Positions 5,817 to 36,774 of a stretch of 64,000 nucleotides of DNA are shown here, piece by piece. The notes beneath the pieces are model-generated. The model ran no database searches and had not been told where the DNA came from. It saw only the letters and a program-made list of their open reading frames with translations. How positions within the stretch are numbered: position 1 is the stretch's first letter; the number at the start of each line of letters is the position of its first letter. Location: assembly GCA_963664225.1 (NCBI GenBank), contig OY760937.1, positions 3,168,001-3,232,000 of the forward strand, given 5' to 3'. The position numbers and the translations under genes are program-made. The stretch is from Verrucomicrobiia bacterium (GTDB lineage: Bacteria; Verrucomicrobiota; Verrucomicrobiia; Limisphaerales; UBA1319).

Positions 5817-7193
5817 TCAGATCTCCACGGTCTGGCCGGGAGTCGGCTCGAGAATCTTGATCCGCGGATGACGGGCGTGAATCTCCTGCTTGAACCATGC
5901 GATGGATTCGTCCTGGCCGTGGCCGAGGACAATGGTGCGCGGGTTCACCTGCGCGACAAAATCCATCATGTCATTGCGGTTGGCATGGGCGGTAAGATCG
6001 AAAATATCCATTTCGCATTTGCGGGTGAGTTCACCGGCTGATTTGCTAAAGAGGAAGGTATCGCCCGGTTTGGTGATTTTGAGGTGACCGCCGGGGGTGT
6101 CGGGATCCGCGTAGCCCACGAAGAAAATGGCGTGCTTTTCATCGCTCATGATCCGCACCGCCAGGTCGTGCGCGGCGGTGTTCTCGCTCATCATTCCCGA
6201 GGTCACCACAAAGATGCGGCCGCCGGTAAGGCGCATTTTCTGGGCCTGACCGGATTCGAGCACCTGCAGATCGAGGGCTTCATTGAGCATCAACGCGCTG
6301 TGCTGGCGGCAGGTGCGGTGGGCCTCCAGGTCGTAGATTTCCGTAAAGACGCGTCCCAGGCCGCCAATATAGATGGGTTGGCGCTTGAGTTTGCCCTCCC
6401 GCATCATCAATGCCAGCATGGCCAATACTTCCTGTGTCCGCCCCAGGGCGAATGAAGGAATCAGCACGCTGCCCTTGCGCTTGAGAACCTTTTGAATGGA
6501 CTCGGCGAGGCGCTGGACCTCGTTATCCCGGGAAAATCCGGGCGGCAACGCGCGGCTGCCCCGGGTGGTTTCCATGAGGAGGACATCCGCCTGAACTTCC
6601 TGGCACCGGGCGCCGCGGAGCAGGGTCTGGTCATGGAAACAGATATCGCCGGTGTAGAAAAACGTCTCTTTGCTGCCGCGAACCATGACTCCGGCGGAGC
6701 CGAGGGTGTGGCCGGCGTCGAAGAATTCGAGCGTGGGCGAGGTGAGGCCGGCGCGGGATTTGTGAAACGCGGCCCATTCGATTTCGCGATTGTAGCGGAA
6801 CCCCTGGAACCGGGCCGAGAGTTCGTCCACCTCGTCATGGTCATAGAGCGGATAATCGGGGATGCCCAGCTCGGTGCGCTGGCGGGTCATGACATTGACC
6901 GAGTTATGCAAAATCCGTTCGACCACGTAATAGCTCAAGTCGGTCATCAGGACGTGCGCGCGGGGAAACTGACGCATGGCCAGCGGCAGGGAGCCGACAT
7001 GATCGTGGTGGCAATGGGATATGGCGATGGCGTCCACATCCTCTTTTTTGATCTGACCGTAGAGCGGCAGGCTGTCTGTGCCTTCGCGTTTGGGGTGGGT
7101 TCCGGCATCCAGGAGCAGTCGATTGTCCTGAATATTCAACAACCACGCGCTGGCGCCAATCTCCTTTGCGGGGTTTAAATTCGTAATTCGCAT
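5817..7193 (-). CDS. MBL-fold beta-CASP ribonuclease (YSH1/CPSF73-like)
   Basis: Motifs SHCHHDHVG, AGHTLGS, YTGD, PSFALGRTQE, TAHAN, GHG. Confidence 0.9.
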   Translation of the reverse strand: MRITNLNPAKEIGASAWLLNIQDNRLLLDAGTHPKREGTDSLPLYGQIKKEDVDAIAISHCHHDHVGSLPLAMRQFPRAHVLMTDLSYYVVERILHNSVNVMTRQRTELGIPDYPLYDHDEVDELSARFQGFRYNREIEWAAFHKSRAGLTSPTLEFFDAGHTLGSAGVMVRGSKETFFYTGDICFHDQTLLRGARCQEVQADVLLMETTRGSRALPPGFSRDNEVQRLAESIQKVLKRKGSVLIPSFALGRTQEVLAMLALMMREGKLKRQPIYIGGLGRVFTEIYDLEAHRTCRQHSALMLNEALDLQVLESGQAQKMRLTGGRIFVVTSGMMSENTAAHDLAVRIMSDEKHAIFFVGYADPDTPGGHLKITKPGDTFLFSKSAGELTRKCEMDIFDLTAHANRNDMMDFVAQVNPRTIVLGHGQDESIAWFKQEIHARHPRIKILEPTPGQTVEI

Positions 7194-7373: not shown

Positions 7374-8231
7374 GGGCGCAGGACACGATTCAGGATTGTG
7401 GAAGACTGCCATGGCAGTGCGCTGTTTTAAATCGGTTTTGCGGCAACGGCAGAACCGGCTTGCGGGGATCGCGGCGAAATTGAAACCGCCCGATTCAATA
7501 ACACCGTAAGCCGGTCAGGAGACCGGCGCTCGTGTGTCTGGCAGGTATTGGATCTATTGGGATGAAAGGAGCCCAACGGGGGCGGTGACGCCAACCGTAG
7601 CGGTAGGCCAGGTTCGATCCGCGAGGGTCGGACGCGAAAGGGCCGAGAGCAAAGGCGCGACCGTAGGAACACGAACGGGCAGTGAGGCCGGGTGCGTGGG
7701 TTAGCTGGCGAGTAACGGCGAAACCCAAAGGTCATCCAAACGCATCAGGTAGAGCCCGGCGGCGCGCGCCGACAGAGTCAATACCGACCCAGAGAGATCT
7801 GTCCCGTGAGAGCGGGACAGAAGTCAGCAGAGGCCATAGTAGTGATGAGGCCCGGTGAAAGCCGGGAGGAGCGAAGGGCCGAAGGAACAAACGGAGCCAA
7901 CCAAGGCGTTGGACATGAGGACGAGTGATGGAATGAAGCAACAGGACGCAACAATTACGGTTACCATCCTGGCACTGGCAAACGGCGGGCCCAACGCTGG
8001 AAGCGCCCAACCCGTCGAAGTATTCCGGGGTCACATGTCTGCACGACTGGGAAGGAAGAACTCTGAATGTTCCAACCGCCGGATGCGAGAAAACCGCACG
8101 TCCGGTGGTGTGGGAGGGTGCCGGGGCGAAATCCCTGGCACCCGACCCGATCGAAGTCACCTGGCGCCCTATATAGTTATAGGACGTTTCAAGGCCTTTT
8201 TCCATTTCCTGAAGAATTTTGTCACGCACCC
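7374..8231. mobile_element. MITE-family copy containing the group II intron
   Basis: Left GGGCGCAGGACACGATTC; right GAAGAATTTTGTCACGCACCC. 238 bp without the intron, versus 235 bp for the 11237 copy without its IS110. TSD not conserved. Confidence 0.6.
7532..8151 (+). mobile_element. ORF-less group IIC intron (620 nt)
   Basis: 5' GTGTG; IIC-typical AAGTCAGCAGAGGCCATAGTA and GAAGGGCCGAA. D5 ACCGCCGGATGCG..CGCACGTCCGGTGGT at 8075-8109 with CGC triad; D6 with bulged A (~8145); ends CCCGAT. No RT ORF. Confidence 0.88.
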
Positions 8232-31128: not shown

Positions 31129-33930
31129 CTAATCAGCGTGCAAAGCTTTCTTATTTTGTACTTTCTTTGCGGTGATCAATGGGGCGGTGATTTTCTCGTA
31201 AAGGGCAAAGAGAAATTCAACGCGCTTGCGGTCGTTTTCAAAAGGCTCGGGGCGATAACATTTATCGACGGCCTTGTCCAAAGCAGCGTGGGCCGTCACC
31301 AGTTCCGGGGGCATGGTCAATGGATCGTAGAGATCGGCGAGCGTTGAACCGGGATATTGTGCGCGAGCGTCCAAGACACCTTGAGCCGCCGCTTCGACGG
31401 CCTTTTTCTGTTTTTCGGAAACATCCTGTGGCCATGGAAAGTTGTTATAGACAAGCCCGGCCGAGTAACGATATCGGCTTTCTAGGCGACCTGCCACGTA
31501 CCTCATCCATGCCATGTGCATTTGGGATGTGGTTACCCCGAAGGTATAAAGGCTCGCTTCGGGAATCGTGTAAAGAAGGTTTGAAGCGATAATGTCTTTT
31601 GTAAGGTATCCAATCGGAATATATCTTCGCGTTTCAGAGGAAACCTCAGGAACGGCCAGATAATCTGAATTGGGCTGGCGAAGCTCTGCAAAGATTGCCG
31701 GGGTTTCCGCCTGTTCGCGCGTCTTGGCCTTTGGGCTCTTTAGCCGGAAACTACGAACAGCTTCAACCCTTTCGAGTATACAAGAGTTATGTCGCCAAAC
31801 GCTCGGCGAGGCCCCCAAAAGCCACAGACAATACCTCTCGCCTCCATTGATTAATTCTTCGGAGCCTAACAAGCGGCGCACCAACGGTGTTACTTCAGGG
31901 TGATCGTTAAGGAGTTTTAAGCGCTCTTCCGGAGTTAGCATCAAGTTCCCACCGTCCACAGGTTTACTCCCATAGACCATTGGCTGGGCATTACATAGGG
32001 GAGACGTACGCTTTTGCATACACAAGTCACTACCCTCGACCAGGTATGGATTGATATTTTTAACTTCAAGAGCCGATGGGCTATGCGGGTCACTGTCGTA
32101 GTCCCATATCTTCTTTAGGGATATCTCGCCTTTGCCAAAGCCAATAATGACAACATGGACATGGGCCTTGCCTCTTGCTTCGCTTGTCCATGCAAATGTG
32201 CGGTGGGCGAAGTGAATCTTTATATGATACCGCCCGAATAGTTCTCCCCAAAGAATTCCCGGTTGCTCACCTTGGCTAATACTGTTCGTGGAAACAAAGG
32301 CGCATCGTGGGCATGCCGTTCCGAGGTATTCGGCCGTCTTGAAATACCAGGCGGTGACATAATCGAGCACGCCAGCCCCTTTAACCCTTCCCCAGATATG
32401 ATCCATATCCTCTTTCTGAGAGGAGGTCATCAAATGTTTCCCCACAAACGGGGGATTGCCGAGAATGAAGGCACACTTTTCCGGGGCGATCACGGTTTTC
32501 CAGTCGATGCGGAGGGCGTTTCCGCAAACGATGGTGGGGGATTTCTTGAGTGGCAGACGCTGGTAGAGCTGGCCGAAGGCTTCCGAGACCTCCAGATTCA
32601 TGAGATGGTCCATGAGCCAGAGGGCGACTTCGGCGATGCGGGCGGGCCATTCCTGAATTTCGATGCCGAACATCTGGTCCACGTCCACCCGGGAAAGGCG
32701 GTTGACGTCGTCCAGTGTCATTTCCGTTTGTTTGCCAAAAAGCTCCTTCAACAGGGCCAGTTCCAGACGCCGCAACTCGCGATAGGTGATGATGAGGAAA
32801 TTTCCGCAGCCGCAGGCGGGATCGAAAAAGCGCAGGGAGCAAATCTTCTCGTGAAATTCCTCGAGGCGAACGCGGCGGCGATTGGAACGGTCCAGCCTGA
32901 TGGTTTCGAATTCGGCCCAGAGGTCGTCCAGAAAGAGGGACCGGACCACCTTCAAAATATCGCGTTCCGAGGTGTAATGGCCGCCGATCTGGCGCCGGGC
33001 TCTGGGCTCCATCACCGCCTGGAATAGAGAGCCGAAGATGGCGGGGGATATCCGGGACCAATCGAAATCCGTGCATTTCAACAGGGCGTCCCGCATGGCC
33101 GAGTTGAAATCGGCAAACCCGAGGTCTTCCGAATAGAGGTCCCCGTTCACGTAGGGGAACGCGGCGAGGGTTTCGTCGAGATTCTTTTGGCGCTGCTCCG
33201 GTTTTTGGTTCAGCACGGCAAAGAGCCTGGCGAGGTGCATGCCCAGATCGGAGCCGTCCGCGCTGGTCCGGTTTTCGAGGTAGAGGCTGAAGGCTTCCCT
33301 CTCGAAGAGGCCGGTATCCTCGGCAAACAGGCAAAAGAGAATGCGGACCAGGAAGCGTTCCAAATCGTGACCGGTGTAGCCGCCGCTGGCCAAGGCGTCG
33401 TGCAAATCACCCATTTTTTCAACGGCCTTGACGTTGATGGGGTCCTGTTCCTCGTATTTGTGCTGTTTGTAACCGGGGATGAACGCGAAGTGGTGAATGT
33501 TTTTGTGGAATTCGGTCAGAGGAAACTCAATCGGCTGGTAAGTTTTCGGGTCCTCCGGCTCGAGGTCGTGGATGGCGATTCTGGCGAAGTCCGAGACGAT
33601 GACGTAGCGGGGGATTTCATTCTGCCGACCGGAATTGGCGAGTTCCTGAATGTATTGGAAGGCCTGCGAACCCGCCCGGCCAAGATCCTTCCCGGCGGAT
33701 TTGTGTTCGGCCAGGAGCATTTTCTTCCAAAAGAGATCGATGTAGCTGAAAGAGCCTTTGAGATTCTTTACGGGTTCCTCGAAGGTGGCGACCAGACGGC
33801 GCTTGAGGCCGAATACGTTGAAAAAATCATCCCAGAAACTTTTGGCTTCGGCGTCCTCCCTGGTTTCAGCCTTCCAATCCTTCGAAAAGACAATGGCACG
33901 TTGTTTTATCTCGTTCCAACTTAAAGGCAT
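31129..33930 (-). CDS. MmeI-like type IIL restriction-modification enzyme
   Basis: MPLSWNEIK; YIDLFWKKMLLAEHKS nuclease; FDPACGCGNF (motif I); GNPPF (motif IV); LADLYDPLTMP C-terminus. Confidence 0.93.
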   Translation of the reverse strand: MPLSWNEIKQRAIVFSKDWKAETREDAEAKSFWDDFFNVFGLKRRLVATFEEPVKNLKGSFSYIDLFWKKMLLAEHKSAGKDLGRAGSQAFQYIQELANSGRQNEIPRYVIVSDFARIAIHDLEPEDPKTYQPIEFPLTEFHKNIHHFAFIPGYKQHKYEEQDPINVKAVEKMGDLHDALASGGYTGHDLERFLVRILFCLFAEDTGLFEREAFSLYLENRTSADGSDLGMHLARLFAVLNQKPEQRQKNLDETLAAFPYVNGDLYSEDLGFADFNSAMRDALLKCTDFDWSRISPAIFGSLFQAVMEPRARRQIGGHYTSERDILKVVRSLFLDDLWAEFETIRLDRSNRRRVRLEEFHEKICSLRFFDPACGCGNFLIITYRELRRLELALLKELFGKQTEMTLDDVNRLSRVDVDQMFGIEIQEWPARIAEVALWLMDHLMNLEVSEAFGQLYQRLPLKKSPTIVCGNALRIDWKTVIAPEKCAFILGNPPFVGKHLMTSSQKEDMDHIWGRVKGAGVLDYVTAWYFKTAEYLGTACPRCAFVSTNSISQGEQPGILWGELFGRYHIKIHFAHRTFAWTSEARGKAHVHVVIIGFGKGEISLKKIWDYDSDPHSPSALEVKNINPYLVEGSDLCMQKRTSPLCNAQPMVYGSKPVDGGNLMLTPEERLKLLNDHPEVTPLVRRLLGSEELINGGERYCLWLLGASPSVWRHNSCILERVEAVRSFRLKSPKAKTREQAETPAIFAELRQPNSDYLAVPEVSSETRRYIPIGYLTKDIIASNLLYTIPEASLYTFGVTTSQMHMAWMRYVAGRLESRYRYSAGLVYNNFPWPQDVSEKQKKAVEAAAQGVLDARAQYPGSTLADLYDPLTMPPELVTAHAALDKAVDKCYRPEPFENDRKRVEFLFALYEKITAPLITAKKVQNKKALHAD

Positions 33931-33988
33931 AACGGTGCTCTTATAGGGGTTAATTTGTTTTTGAGCAAAACATATTCGACCGGTCCCA

Positions 33989-34071
33989 AGGCGGGGAAAA
34001 TGACCGCAGAGGCAAAGAGGCATGGAGAGACCAAAAAACGGAATATAAACATGGATGGGCAGGATGAGCAG
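33989..34071 (+). repeat. ~80-bp direct repeat, copy 2 (right of R-M cassette)
   Basis: Homologous to 29505-29585. Confidence 0.8.
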
Positions 34072-34100: not shown

Positions 34101-35121
34101 TACAGCGTTGGGATTTCAGGGGACGGGGACCCCGGGTAGCCCTCGGCGGGCAACCCGGGTCTGAATGATTTAATCCCTTCGGGATAATGAGATGCAAATC
34201 CCGCGCCGCAGTGGTTGATTGGAGATTAAGCGCCACCATATCTGCCAGACTGGAACAGGTCGCGCCACGATTCGGCAATCGTCCCACCCACGCAACCCTC
34301 ATTGGAATGCAATCATCCAACCCCGATCAACCAACCTCAACCGCATTCCGTAATCGCCCCATCCGCGCAATCCTGTAGGGATTGCAATCACTCAGCCCCG
34401 GGTCGCGAGGAACGAGCCACCCGGGGTCATCGTCCACCCTCCATAATTTCCCCAACGCTGTAGGCGTTGAAGCAAATTCGTGAATCGTAAATCCTCGGAG
34501 CATGCCTAAATCCCTTGCAAAGATTCTCGTGCATACGGTTTTCTCAACCAAAGACCGCCGCCCATTTCTTCGTGACAAATTGCTCCGGCAGGAACTGCAT
34601 TGTTACCTTGGAGGCATCCTGGCCCAACTCGAATGCCAGCCCATCCTTTTTGGCGGCGCGGAAGACCATGTGCATCTGCTCTGCGCCTTGTCGCGCACCT
34701 GCGAGGCGTCCGCGATGGTCAGGGAAGTCAAACGCGGATCAACGTTGTGGTTGAAATCAAAAGATCAGACCCTGAACGATTTTTCATGGCAAAACGGCTA
34801 CGGCATTTTTTCAATCGGTTTTTCACAAATTGCAGCAGCGCGCAAATACATCACAGAACAGGAGTGCCATCATCGCAAAATCTCCTTTCAAGACGAATAC
34901 CGCGAATTCTTAAAACGATACGAAATTGAATGGGACGAACGCCATGTATGGGACTGATCCAACTCCTACAGCGTTGGGATTTCAGGGGGGGCGGGGACCC
35001 CGGGTAGCCCTCGGCGGGCAACCCGGGTCTGAATGATTTAATCCCTTCGGGATAATGAGGTGCCAACCTGGGCAGCGCTTTCCCCGGCAACCTGGGCTGA
35101 ATGATTGCAGTCCGTTCCGGG
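34101..35121. repeat. REP/REPIN-like palindromic units flanking tnpA
   Basis: 34101-34191 and 34967-35059 are near-identical direct copies; divergent inverted copy ~34369-34469; partial copy ~35066-35121. Confidence 0.85.
34502..34957 (+). CDS. tnpA: IS200/IS605-family Y1 (HUH) transposase, REP-associated
   Basis: HTVFSTKDR, EDHVHLL, WQNGYG, YITEQ. Confidence 0.9.
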   Translation: MPKSLAKILVHTVFSTKDRRPFLRDKLLRQELHCYLGGILAQLECQPILFGGAEDHVHLLCALSRTCEASAMVREVKRGSTLWLKSKDQTLNDFSWQNGYGIFSIGFSQIAAARKYITEQECHHRKISFQDEYREFLKRYEIEWDERHVWD

Positions 35122-35516
35122 TTGCACGGAGGATGGGCGGTCACGTGCAGTGCAGGGGGAATTTTGAATTTTGAAGAGATGTCCGACTTTAAATGCCTCT
35201 GCCATACGATGTCCGAACCGGCTGAAGCCGGGACTCCATGCCCCGGAACGCCGGGTCGGGGGACCCGGCCTACAAGCTGATGCGCCTGAATATGTTGTAC
35301 GCCACGCGCCTTCGTGCGGCATTATATAATGCTGTGCCGCAGGGTTTTATAGAATGGCTGTATGGAAGGATCAAAGGCACAGAGGCGAATGGAAAGCCGC
35401 AGTTGAGGCAAGGACGGTGATTCAAACCGGTGAATGGGTGTGAATAAACGCCTATCATGAGAAAATTCGGGGAAATCCCAAAATATTCCATTTTTCTTTC
35501 AAAATTTGCATAAAAA

Positions 35517-35681
35517 ATGAACTTTTCGCCCGCAGGTTCGTCGAACGTGTGGTAATTATACGGGGTATAGGTTGTTTAGAACCGGCGGTTGCTCCAACAA
35601 CAGTCGGGATTAGACATTGGTTAACGGAACAGGTTGTTTGGGTTAAGCGGGCGTCGCAAGGCGTCCGCTTTCCTTTTTTTT
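35517..35681 (+). ncRNA. Putative sRNA unit 1 (ECF-like promoter + hairpin + conserved block + terminator)
   Basis: ATGAAC-N16-CGTCGA; hairpin 35573-35616; GGTTAACGGAACAGGTTGTT at 35619; terminator to 35681. Confidence 0.65.
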
Positions 35682-35698
35682 CAGGGGTAAAAGATTTT

Positions 35699-35839
35699 TG
35701 TAACCGAACTGGCTGTGTCGTGTCACTTATTATGGAATGTTTGGTGCTGGCTGTCCTTGTGACATCTGGTTGCAAGCATTGGTTAACGGAACGGGTTGTT
35801 AAGGCTGAGCGGACGTCTTGTGGCGTCCGCTCTTTTTTT
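35699..35839 (+). ncRNA. Putative sRNA unit 2
   Basis: TGTAAC-N16-TGTCAC; hairpin 35736-35780; GGTTAACGGAACGGGTTGTT at 35781; terminator to 35839. Confidence 0.65.
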
Positions 35840-35850
35840 GGTGTGGGATT

Positions 35851-36010
35851 TGTAACCTGTCAGGGGGTTGGTGCGTCAAAGAAGGGTGTACAGTGGTTGT
35901 ACAGGGCAGTTTTCTGCCGGCAGTCCAATTATGACGGCCGGGATTAAACAGAGGTTAACGGAACAGGTTGTTTGGGTTGAGCGGACGTCGCAAGGCGTCC
36001 GCTTTTTTTT
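35851..36010 (+). ncRNA. Putative sRNA unit 3
   Basis: TGTAAC-N17-CGTCAA; hairpin ~35909-35949; GGTTAACGGAACAGGTTGTT at 35953; terminator to 36010. Confidence 0.65.
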
Positions 36011-36051
36011 GAGGTTGAACCCCGCCCGAACCTGCCACACACTGGACCCAT

Positions 36052-36774
36052 ATGGGCGCACAATGGAAACAAGCCGGACGTGAAGCAAATGCGCAGAAGC
36101 GCGGCCAGATGGTCGTGAAGCTCGTGCGCGAAATTGTCGTGGCCGCCAAATTGGGCGGCGCGGATCCTGAGACCAACGCGCGCCTGGCGGCGGCCCTGGA
36201 AAAGGCCCGCAAGAGTTCGGTGACTCGGGACACCATCGAACGCGCCATTAAAAAAGGGTCGGGGCAGACGGATGAAAAGGTGGTTTACGAGCTGGTCACT
36301 TACGAGGGCTTTGGCCCGCACAAGGTGCCCGTGGTTGTGGAATGCCTGACCGATAACCGGAACCGCACCGCGCCGGAGATTCGTAATTTGTTCAAGGGCG
36401 GTTCCATGGGCCAGCCCGGCAGTGTCGCCTTTTTCTTTAATCACACCGGTGTGATTGAGGGGACGCACACCGATACCACCCGAGACGCGGAGACGGACGC
36501 CATCGAGGCGGGCGCGCAGGAGGTGGAGCCATTGGAGGCCGATGAAGTGCCCGAAGGCCAGAAGGGCGCGCGGTTCATGGTGGATGCGCGCGAACTGGAC
36601 CATGTGACCAAGGCCCTGAAGGCGGCGGGGTGGAAGATTCTGGCGTCGGAAATCCGCTATGTGGCCAAGAGTTTCCCCGAGCTTTCTGAATCGGCGCACA
36701 AGGAAGTCGCCGCGTTTTTGAATGGATTGGACGATCACGACGACGTTCACCGGGTCTATGCCGCGATGCGGTAG
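36052..36774 (+). CDS. yebC: YebC/PmpR family protein
   Basis: GADPETNARL, YEGFGP, VECLTDNRNRT, LDDHDDVHRVY. Confidence 0.93.
   Translation: MGAQWKQAGREANAQKRGQMVVKLVREIVVAAKLGGADPETNARLAAALEKARKSSVTRDTIERAIKKGSGQTDEKVVYELVTYEGFGPHKVPVVVECLTDNRNRTAPEIRNLFKGGSMGQPGSVAFFFNHTGVIEGTHTDTTRDAETDAIEAGAQEVEPLEADEVPEGQKGARFMVDARELDHVTKALKAAGWKILASEIRYVAKSFPELSESAHKEVAAFLNGLDDHDDVHRVYAAMR

Follow-up and report, generated by a model that had tools for sequence, protein, structure and literature searches.

Trans-acting small RNAs (sRNAs) that depend on extracytoplasmic function (ECF) sigma factors or sigma-E include MicA, RybB, and MicL in enterobacteria, VrrA in Vibrio, and FoxI/FoxJ in Fusobacterium. 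Other sRNAs occur as sibling copies, such as Qrr1-5, OmrA/OmrB, PrrF1/2, and AbcR1/2, while CsrB, RsmY, and RsmZ act as protein-sponge RNAs. Here, we discuss a tandem array of three sibling units (positions 35517-36012, plus strand) in a 64,000-nt stretch from a member of the order Limisphaerales (Verrucomicrobiia bacterium; assembly GCA_963664225.1, contig OY760937.1, positions 3,168,001-3,232,000). The whole stretch is referred to as the window and the complete 5.78-Mb genome that carries it as the host genome. An earlier note, made from the letters of the window, had taken the units for sRNA genes of no known family, each with an ECF-type promoter. This interpretation is largely right: the three siblings of the array belong to an sRNA family that is not yet catalogued and has ECF-type promoters. 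Comparison with related genomes makes a recent species-level triplication of an order-conserved single-copy sRNA gene the best explanation for these presumed paralogs.

The family resembles the sigma-E-dependent sRNAs in its length (~100-135 nt), an own promoter of the alternative-sigma type (AAC / CGT), a single-stranded conserved segment, and a Rho-independent terminator, and also in being conserved at the level of a bacterial order. It differs from them in that Rfam 15 gives no sequence or structure match to these RNAs, that the conserved segment is situated just before the terminator and not at the 5′ end, and that the promoter motif is absent from 37 of 95 homolog loci. Moreover, no Hfq gene was found in the host genome, and the analogy with MicA and RybB drawn in the earlier note therefore cannot include Hfq. 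As in the Qrr, OmrAB, PrrF, and AbcR siblings, the copies are tandem or nearby paralogs, each with its own promoter and terminator, that share a seed while the remainder has diverged. Unlike in those systems, the multiplication is confined to one species, the seed of unit 2 is changed, and the -35 elements differ among the copies. The Bacteroidetes FopS RNA (Rfam RF04319) is likewise a multi-copy paralogous sRNA family outside Proteobacteria; its match over unit 3 (16.8 bits against a gathering score of 56, E = 10) is at chance level and covers essentially the terminator only. GGA motifs (AAGGAGG in the family; ACGGAAC in the window) and a terminator are shared with CsrB, RsmY, and RsmZ. However, there is one conserved GGA per RNA, it lies outside a hairpin loop, and the host genome yielded no CsrA gene.

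A repeat finder reports one family in the array, with three 77-nt copies at 35600-35676, 35762-35838, and 35934-36010, where copies 2 and 3 are 71% and 88% identical to copy 1. The units lie head to tail and start 162 and 172 nt apart, which bears out the spacing given in the earlier note. In each, an AAC-N16/17-(C/T)GTC promoter-like site is followed by a hairpin of three tiers, the GU-rich block common to all units, and a strong terminator, all on the plus strand. Unit 1 begins with the site ATGAAC (35517-35522)-N16-CGTCGA (35517-35544), which is preceded by an A-rich run and suggests a transcription start at ~35549-35551. A small 6-bp hairpin (35556-35570) lies 5′ of the three-tier hairpin (35573-35616; 7 + 5 + 4 bp in the fold of 35550-35680). 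The single-stranded block GGTTAACGGAACAGGTTGTTTGGGTT (35619-35644), which includes the family core GGTTGTTTGGGTT, follows, and an intrinsic terminator with an 11-bp stem, a GCAA loop, and a T run ends the unit (35645-35680). In unit 2, the site TGTAAC (35699-35704)-N16-TGTCAC (35699-35724 up to TGTC) carries TGTC rather than CGTC as its -10 element, and the predicted start is at ~35731-35733. Its three-tier hairpin covers 35736-35780 (8 + 5 + 4 bp; fold of 35733-35842), the block GGTTAACGGAACGGGTTGTTAAGGCT (35781-35806) has the core altered to UUAAGGCU, and the terminator (35807-35842) has an 11-bp stem, a TTGT loop, and a T run. Unit 3 carries TGTAAC (35851-35856)-N17-CGTCAA (35851-35877 up to CGTC) with a predicted start at ~35884-35886, a small 6-bp hairpin (35887-35903) 5′ of the three-tier hairpin (35909-35949; 4 + 1 + 5 + 3 bp, fold of 35885-36012), the block GGTTAACGGAACAGGTTGTTTGGGTT (35953-35978), and a terminator (35979-36012; 11-bp stem, GCAA loop, T run) ending ~40 nt 5′ of yebC (36052-36774). 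The three promoter-like sites and the three terminators are thus present as the earlier note had described. In addition, the -35 region of unit 1 is overlapped by an A/T-rich imperfect inverted repeat (35482-35526; two 22-nt arms with 73% complementarity).

The predicted RNAs, folded as 131, 110, and 128 nt for units 1 to 3, adopt the same arrangement: a three-tier hairpin ending 2-3 nt before the block, a single-stranded stretch, and the terminator. The folds are stable relative to shuffled sequences, with -42.3 kcal/mol (z -2.65) for unit 1, -40.8 kcal/mol (z -3.63) for unit 2, and -45.3 kcal/mol (z -3.47) for unit 3; none of 200 shuffles was equally stable for units 2 and 3. The pairing in the 5′ hairpin is kept among the units through compensatory change. 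In the apical helix (GUUG/CAAC, UGUC/GACA, and GUC/GAC in units 1 to 3), both sides differ at all four positions, and in the middle helix (CCGGC/GUCGG, GCUGG/CUGGU, and CCGGC/GCCGG), both sides differ at three of five. Hence, the proposal of a hairpin of varying sequence and constant pairing agrees with the folds, which display outer, middle, and apical helices. The terminator stems contain 7-8 G-C pairs among their 11 bp and are followed by a T run; a scan of 1.3 kb gave four terminator-like sites compared with 2.1 expected.

To place the units in a wider context, two covariance models were used. Model R1 covers the 3′ 65 nt and was built with the window units included, while model R2 was derived from other genomes only, using 43 of 86 distinct homologs. 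R2 recovers all three units, with unit 3 scoring best (51.5 bits, E 1.3e-13), followed by unit 1 (45.4 bits, E 8.2e-12) and unit 2 (32.9 bits, E 3.8e-08), and in the unit 1 match the block aligns to the family core. The next plus-strand match in the 64 kb has an E value of 0.24. Since R2 was built without the window units, their assignment to the family is not circular, and they are divergent members of it as judged by alignment. With R1 (E<=0.01), 104 of the 151 genomes in a sample of the order gave matches, in most cases a single full-length one. BLAST with unit 3 gave partial matches in four other families of the order, where the loci are single-copy genes of the same layout. At least 120 loci matched the exact pattern when one genome per prokaryote species was scanned, nearly all in records titled Verrucomicrobia, Verrucomicrobiota, Pedosphaera, or Limisphaerales. 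In a sample of 150 genomes of the phylum outside the order, matches were only terminators directly 3′ of stop codons. As these are false positives, the family is essentially order-wide and order-restricted.

A canonical family member consists, from 5′ to 3′, of an A/T-rich stretch, the promoter TTTGAACA-N16-CGTC(T/A)GA, two or three hairpins without a fixed sequence, an unpaired RAAGGAGGU, 3-4 nt, GUUUGGUUGUUUGGGUU, and a terminator with its U run. The terminator arms read GCGGGC.../...GCCCGC, the loop is mostly of the GNRA type, and the stem starts 1-5 nt after the GU-rich core GGUUGUUUGGGUU. Predicted lengths are 119-156 nt (median 136). The core GGUUGUUUGGGUU is nearly invariant, and the purine block RAAGGRGG and GUUUGGUUGUUUGGGUU are invariant or nearly so in 88 aligned homologs. 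The hairpin proximal to the purine block is instead conserved as a structure: a helix of at least 4 bp ending at most 2 nt from the block is present in 77 of 95 loci (83 different arm sequences), compared with 32.5% in shuffles and 28/95 for a window shifted by 12 nt. In the terminator helix, changes on both sides are seen in seven of ten predicted pairs (pair counts, 91 sequences), while the arm positions CGG/CCG are invariant or conserved in 90/91. Compensatory change in homologs, whose absence the earlier note had named as a refutation, is thus seen in the terminator helix.

The window units keep the 3′ module of the family and depart from it in several respects. In the R2 alignment, AACGGAAC replaces AAGGAGG, and a 6-nt deletion has removed the first GUUU of the core. 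Consequently, the purine block RAAGGRGG, which elsewhere lies 3-5 nt before GUUUGG, is not found, and in unit 2 the core itself is changed (GGUUGUUAAGGCU). The block shared by the units, GGTTAACGGAAC(A/G)GGTTGTT, starts at 35619, 35781, and 35953, where the earlier note had placed a near-invariant element. Outside the host species, however, only its 3′ half, GGTTGTTTGGGTT, is conserved, and the rest is invariant mainly because the copies are young.

That the triplication is recent follows from the closest relatives. A genome of the same genus has one clear copy, adjoining cheW and lacking the GGTTAACGGAAC block; its second, weak match is a terminator directly after the stop codon of a gene. 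One copy, again without the GGTTAACGGAAC part, is present in the genome of the same family that was searched. In the host genome, BLAST gives only the three copies of the array, and a fourth R1 match (E 0.001) spans the terminator half of the model only. Being limited to three adjacent copies, the units do not constitute a dispersed repeat. A 186-nt metatranscriptome contig is ~92% identical over 35581-35713 and continues into sequence resembling unit 2, which means that a close relative also has the tandem form. The two metatranscriptome runs contain small shares of the stretch, whose uncovered parts carry no meaning, and the contig indicates presence, not a transcript; as a hint of expression it is weak.

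Some occurrences of the family are found in unexpected records. Two genomes of 0.6-0.7 Mb (GC 39%; G309 and G308), titled candidate-phyla-radiation (CPR) bacteria, carry the purine block, the core, and the terminator module (L055, about 360-456, and L057, about 370-466 on the minus strand; one contig is 186 kb). In both, the module is flanked by one and the same pair of genes and stands behind a sigma-70-type promoter; the downstream gene is presumably frr, as read from its translation. In 120 other genomes of the same CPR order, only generic terminators were found, and the occurrence looks like a rare transfer. GC-rich, Verrucomicrobia-like copies are also present in records titled Cyanophyceae, Limnocylindria, Methylomirabilota, Kapaibacterium, and Chromulinivoraceae (L048, L050, L053, L059, L064, and L124). 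The promoter region of L053 is the same as that of L037, a member of the order, and these records are probably mis-binned contigs.

The textbook promoter of group 4 (ECF) sigma factors combines AAC at -35 with CGTC at -10 across a spacer of 16-17 nt. In the family, 58 of 95 distinct homolog loci have GAA[CG]-N16-17-CGTC at a distance of 90-140 nt 5′ of the core, as opposed to 1/95 for the reverse complement and a mean of 0.3 (max 3) in 200 shuffles; the motif has the consensus aAAaaatTTTGAAcA-N16-gCGTCtgA. At the corresponding position, AAC-N16/17-CGTC is found in units 1 and 3 and AAC-N16-TGTC in unit 2, the latter also in the same-genus copy; the -35 element reads TGAAC in unit 1 but GTAAC in the other two units. 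By comparison, the two host rRNA promoters are TTGACA-N16/17-TAGAGT with A-rich upstream elements and are unlike the family motif. TGWAAC-N16-YGTC and TGWAAC-N17-YGTC each occur once in the window, at units 2 and 3, with 0.27 and 0.34 matches expected from shuffles. As at least one match occurred in 24 and 27 of 100 shuffles, respectively, a single promoter-like site is not significant on its own. Collectively, these data make it reasonably probable that transcription depends on an ECF sigma. The ECF-type character of the promoters claimed in the earlier note has thus been strengthened, although the searches described below did not yield a cognate sigma factor. The accompanying ideas of a link to envelope stress and of one ECF sigma per copy are hypotheses.

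The reading toward which we lean, if by no wide confidence, is that the units are three separate sRNA genes, each with its own ECF-type promoter and Rho-independent terminator, whose products act by pairing through the GU-rich segment. Each unit would be transcribed from its own alternative-sigma promoter (ECF-type, AAC ... C/TGTC) and end at its own Rho-independent terminator, giving RNAs of ~107-131 nt, close to the ~105-130 nt estimated before. The RNA would comprise a variable 5′ hairpin domain, a single-stranded segment, and the terminator, and the functional part is most likely the single-stranded segment with its core GGUUGUUUGGGUU. This core would base-pair in trans with target mRNAs at C/A-rich stretches, and none of Hfq, ProQ, and CsrA would be involved. 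The RNAs may also have a role in a stress response.

Several observations weigh against this reading, beginning with the promoter. The motif is lacking in 37 of 95 homolog loci, some of which have a sigma-70-like TTGAAG-N17-TAGAAT and others TTGCRG ... CGTCAAT. No AAC-N16-17-CGT at a plausible autoregulatory distance was found in the upstream regions of the 38 Sigma70_r2 genes of the host genome, and 30 of 36 sigma loci examined in genome G144 gave one weak candidate, GAGAACC-N16-CGTC. Genome-wide, intergenic [TG][GT]AAC-N16-17-CGTC is barely enriched (65 occurrences vs 45-57 at other spacings). A position matrix built from the 58 family promoters gave 44 matches in the host genome, in mixed context and none at the place expected upstream of a sigma gene; the window promoters fall below its listing threshold (14), while the top genome sites reach 23. 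The proposed mode of action meets similar difficulties. Using RNAduplex, the three seeds paired with 4616 start regions with energies equal to those of five shuffled seeds, such that pairing with envelope-protein mRNAs of the MicA/RybB type finds no support. The complement of the 14-mer core, allowing at most one mismatch, was as rare in five genomes as its backwards control. The genes for Hfq, ProQ, and CsrA were not found in the complete host genome, whereas the same searches detected the controls. Moreover, the 17-nt core and the GCGGGC...GCCCGC arms are more invariant than most pairing seeds, a property that fits a protein or ribosome partner as well. Finally, the metatranscriptome contig crosses terminator 1 into unit-2-like sequence and could therefore represent DNA carry-over or read-through.

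Some further observations concern promoters and targets. High matrix scores occur in intergenic DNA at host genome positions 3367449 (-), 2560425 (-), 861524 (-), and 4350796 (+), with no open reading frame (ORF) within 400 nt downstream according to rough gene calls; these may mark additional sRNA genes belonging to the same regulon. The homologs L126, L059, L080, L093, L095, L119, L048, L099, and L125 form a subgroup with non-ECF promoters. Its 5′ domain is conserved in sequence, begins with GUUGGUUC, and contains ACACCGCGGUUGCAACG, which indicates that the family has at least two structural subtypes. A search for exact 11-mer complements yielded anecdotes only. Two candidates stand out: a 13-nt complement at -22 to -10 of a gene (host genome 4551690-4552955) for a Gfo/Idh/MocA oxidoreductase with a twin-arginine translocation (TAT) signal, and the group II intron copies described below.

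An unlikely alternative, though the one that survives best, is that the RNA binds a protein or the ribosome instead of mRNAs, either as a translation-start mimic (a decoy for the 30S subunit and its anti-Shine-Dalgarno sequence) or by titrating an RNA-binding protein. Most family members have a perfect Shine-Dalgarno (SD) look-alike, RAAGGAGGU, just before the core, and the canonical version matches the host 16S tail: the block is complementary to GGATCACCTCCTTTCT, the 3′ end of the 16S rRNA. The near-invariance of purine block and core, the conservation of the terminator arms in sequence, and the null result of the target searches are all in line with such a partner. The same 3′ module, standing behind a sigma-70-type promoter in the two small genomes of another phylum, would likewise fit a self-contained function. 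However, the SD look-alike is lost in all three window copies (AACGGAAC for AAGGAGG and the 6-nt deletion) and is hence dispensable here. In minimum-energy folds, the purine block is paired in 25 of 51 family RNAs, with no consistent partner, and free in 26; for this reason, a closing helix that sequesters the block was also rejected as a candidate. As noted above, genes for CsrA, Hfq, and ProQ were not found in the host. Pairing of the unit seeds with the rRNA operon (-32.3 vs a shuffle mean of -27.5, sd 2.1) stays within the shuffle range, the best shuffle reaching -32.8.

A more specific version, to which we assign a lower probability again, combines these features. The invariant module of a stress-sigma-induced RNA (the SD look-alike, GUUUGGUUGUUUGGGUU, and the terminator with its GNRA loop) would dock on a universal partner, namely the 30S subunit through the anti-SD tail of 16S rRNA or a beta-CASP ribonuclease (RNase), whose activity the RNA would guide or regulate. 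The family would then be self-contained and no ordinary regulator by mRNA pairing. If true, such docking would explain the near-invariance across the order, the lack of a known chaperone, the place beside an RNase gene discussed below, and the survival of the module in CPR genomes.

This housekeeping RNase is the usual neighbor of the sRNA elsewhere in the order, where its gene is divergently transcribed (~40 of 103 loci). Among the 96 full-length R1 matches listed, 49, each in a different genome, are divergent to the RNase ORF at a distance of 65-417 nt, and this position validates eight weak R1 matches (E>1e-5) among them. In the host genome, the ortholog lies 28 kb upstream of the array (5817-7193, minus strand), such that the adjacency does not hold here. 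It was identified by tblastn at 70% identity to the neighbor gene of locus L021, whose protein was run against Pfam and NCBIfam and has the domains MBL, Beta-Casp, and RMMBL. Among NCBIfam models, aCPSF1 and Cas14, a nuclease of type VII CRISPR systems, come nearest, both far below the cut-off. Part of the 28-kb gap is filled by a group II intron, an MmeI-type restriction-modification gene, and an IS200-type transposase gene, which suggests an insertion of foreign DNA. The latter two are directly upstream of the array: the MmeI-type gene is complete, with all five MmeI domains (31129-34023, minus strand), and the IS200-like Y1 transposase gene is at 34502-34957 (plus strand).

The tight divergent arrangement, with the family promoter only tens of nt from the RNase start codon and 156-305 nt between core and ATG, raises the possibility that the element is tied to this gene, either as a divergent regulatory transcript (through promoter interference or as antisense to a long RNase leader) or as a substrate, cofactor, or guide of the nuclease, and that the array is a displaced, duplicated remnant. 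We regard this as improbable. As a near-universal gene of the order (143 of 151 genomes), the RNase also occurs in genomes without an sRNA match; there is therefore no co-occurrence signal, and the link is positional. Adjacency is frequent without being defining, as 19 strong R1 matches (E<=1e-8) lie away from the RNase gene, and so do all copies in the host genome, its genus, and its family. In addition, the RNA is equipped with a separate promoter and terminator and is directed away from the RNase gene, and the RNase leaders contain no conserved complement to it. Pairing of the purine block with the leader was considered separately and rejected, since an anti-SD-like motif is present in only 2 of 38 leaders.

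Even less probable, in our judgment, is that the units are decaying, functionless duplicates beside mobile DNA or the leader of the downstream yebC. The neighboring IS200-type and MmeI-type genes, the altered core and weakest model score of unit 2, and the ~40 nt between the third terminator and yebC would be in keeping with such an origin. Nevertheless, both helices of the 5′ hairpin are kept through both-side changes in the three units, every unit retains a promoter-like site and a strong terminator, and the family is conserved across the order at loci that are not beside yebC. Read-through into yebC would also be blocked by the three strong terminators. A small peptide (MVVWV...), read from the TTG codon that follows AAGGAGG by 5-6 nt, a proper distance, in most homologs, is very improbable, as the frame would cross the terminator without a stop, is shifted among close relatives by 1-3-base indels between core and terminator, and runs into terminator arms that vary by compensatory and not synonymous changes, while the window copies lack the SD look-alike and their ORFs have no Pfam match.

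The absence of a conserved coding frame, as the earlier note had it, holds for the array as a whole. The 132-amino-acid ORF at 35549-35947 (plus strand) and three further ORFs overlapping the units have no Pfam match. With a unit spacing of 172 nt, no reading frame can be common to the units, and the indels between core and terminator in homologs break any frame. A cluster of ORFs downstream of the array also belongs to no Pfam family, and it probably represents shadow ORFs.

Furthermore, the family is not catalogued. At the gathering score, Rfam 15 returned only group II intron parts elsewhere in the window and nothing on the array, and a search of 15 canonical homolog loci gave nothing relevant, in line with the earlier statement that no known family could be recognized. 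Under permissive settings, 35200-36200 gave chance-level matches mostly driven by the terminators and all far below the gathering score, among them the L20 leader (18-23 bits vs 58.7) and the FopS match mentioned above. In the portion of the literature accessible to us, no such RNA was found described for Verrucomicrobia or Pedosphaera, and supplementary motif catalogues could still contain it. A mobile or viral origin was rejected, as there were no matches in viral contigs and only three copies are present in the host genome. The same applies to a dispersed repeat, be it a repetitive extragenic palindrome (REP) or a miniature inverted-repeat transposable element (MITE): the three copies are adjacent, and most relatives have one clear copy in a syntenic place. 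The mobile repeat that the earlier note had named as a possible refutation can thus be set aside.

Verrucomicrobiota are abundant in soils and fresh waters and have few cultured members. For this part of the phylum, no small regulatory RNA was found described in the literature as far as it was available. The family provides a testable candidate, an RNA present in about two thirds of the sampled genomes of the order with a mutable core of 13-17 nt, and its promoter motif points to a regulon of an alternative (ECF-type) sigma. The array constitutes a natural experiment in which one species triplicated the gene and diversified its promoters and seed. Regulation by sRNA would here have to work without Hfq, ProQ, and CsrA. 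Should the RNase link or the SD look-alike turn out to be functional, the family would not be just one further case of a seed-pairing sRNA.

Group II intron RNA domains are located in the window at 7615-8151 (plus strand; Rfam RF02001 and RF00029). Four identical copies of a group II intron elsewhere in the host genome contain the 12-13 nt sequence ACCCAAACAACC, a complement of the core in units 1 and 3, immediately 3′ of the D1-D4 match on the sense strand of the intron. The one of these four that was examined is at host genome 1676576-1678500 (RF02005 and RF00029).

Another repeat, of ~90 nt or longer, contains the palindrome CAACCCGTTCCGGGTT, whose exact core occurs 27 times in the host genome outside the window. 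Copies are found at 619438-622511, including six in tandem at ~614-nt spacing, and at ~20 other places, many of them upstream of small ORFs. A 12-nt exact match (or complement), CGGAACGGGTTG, is common to this repeat and unit 2 and is not present in units 1 and 3.

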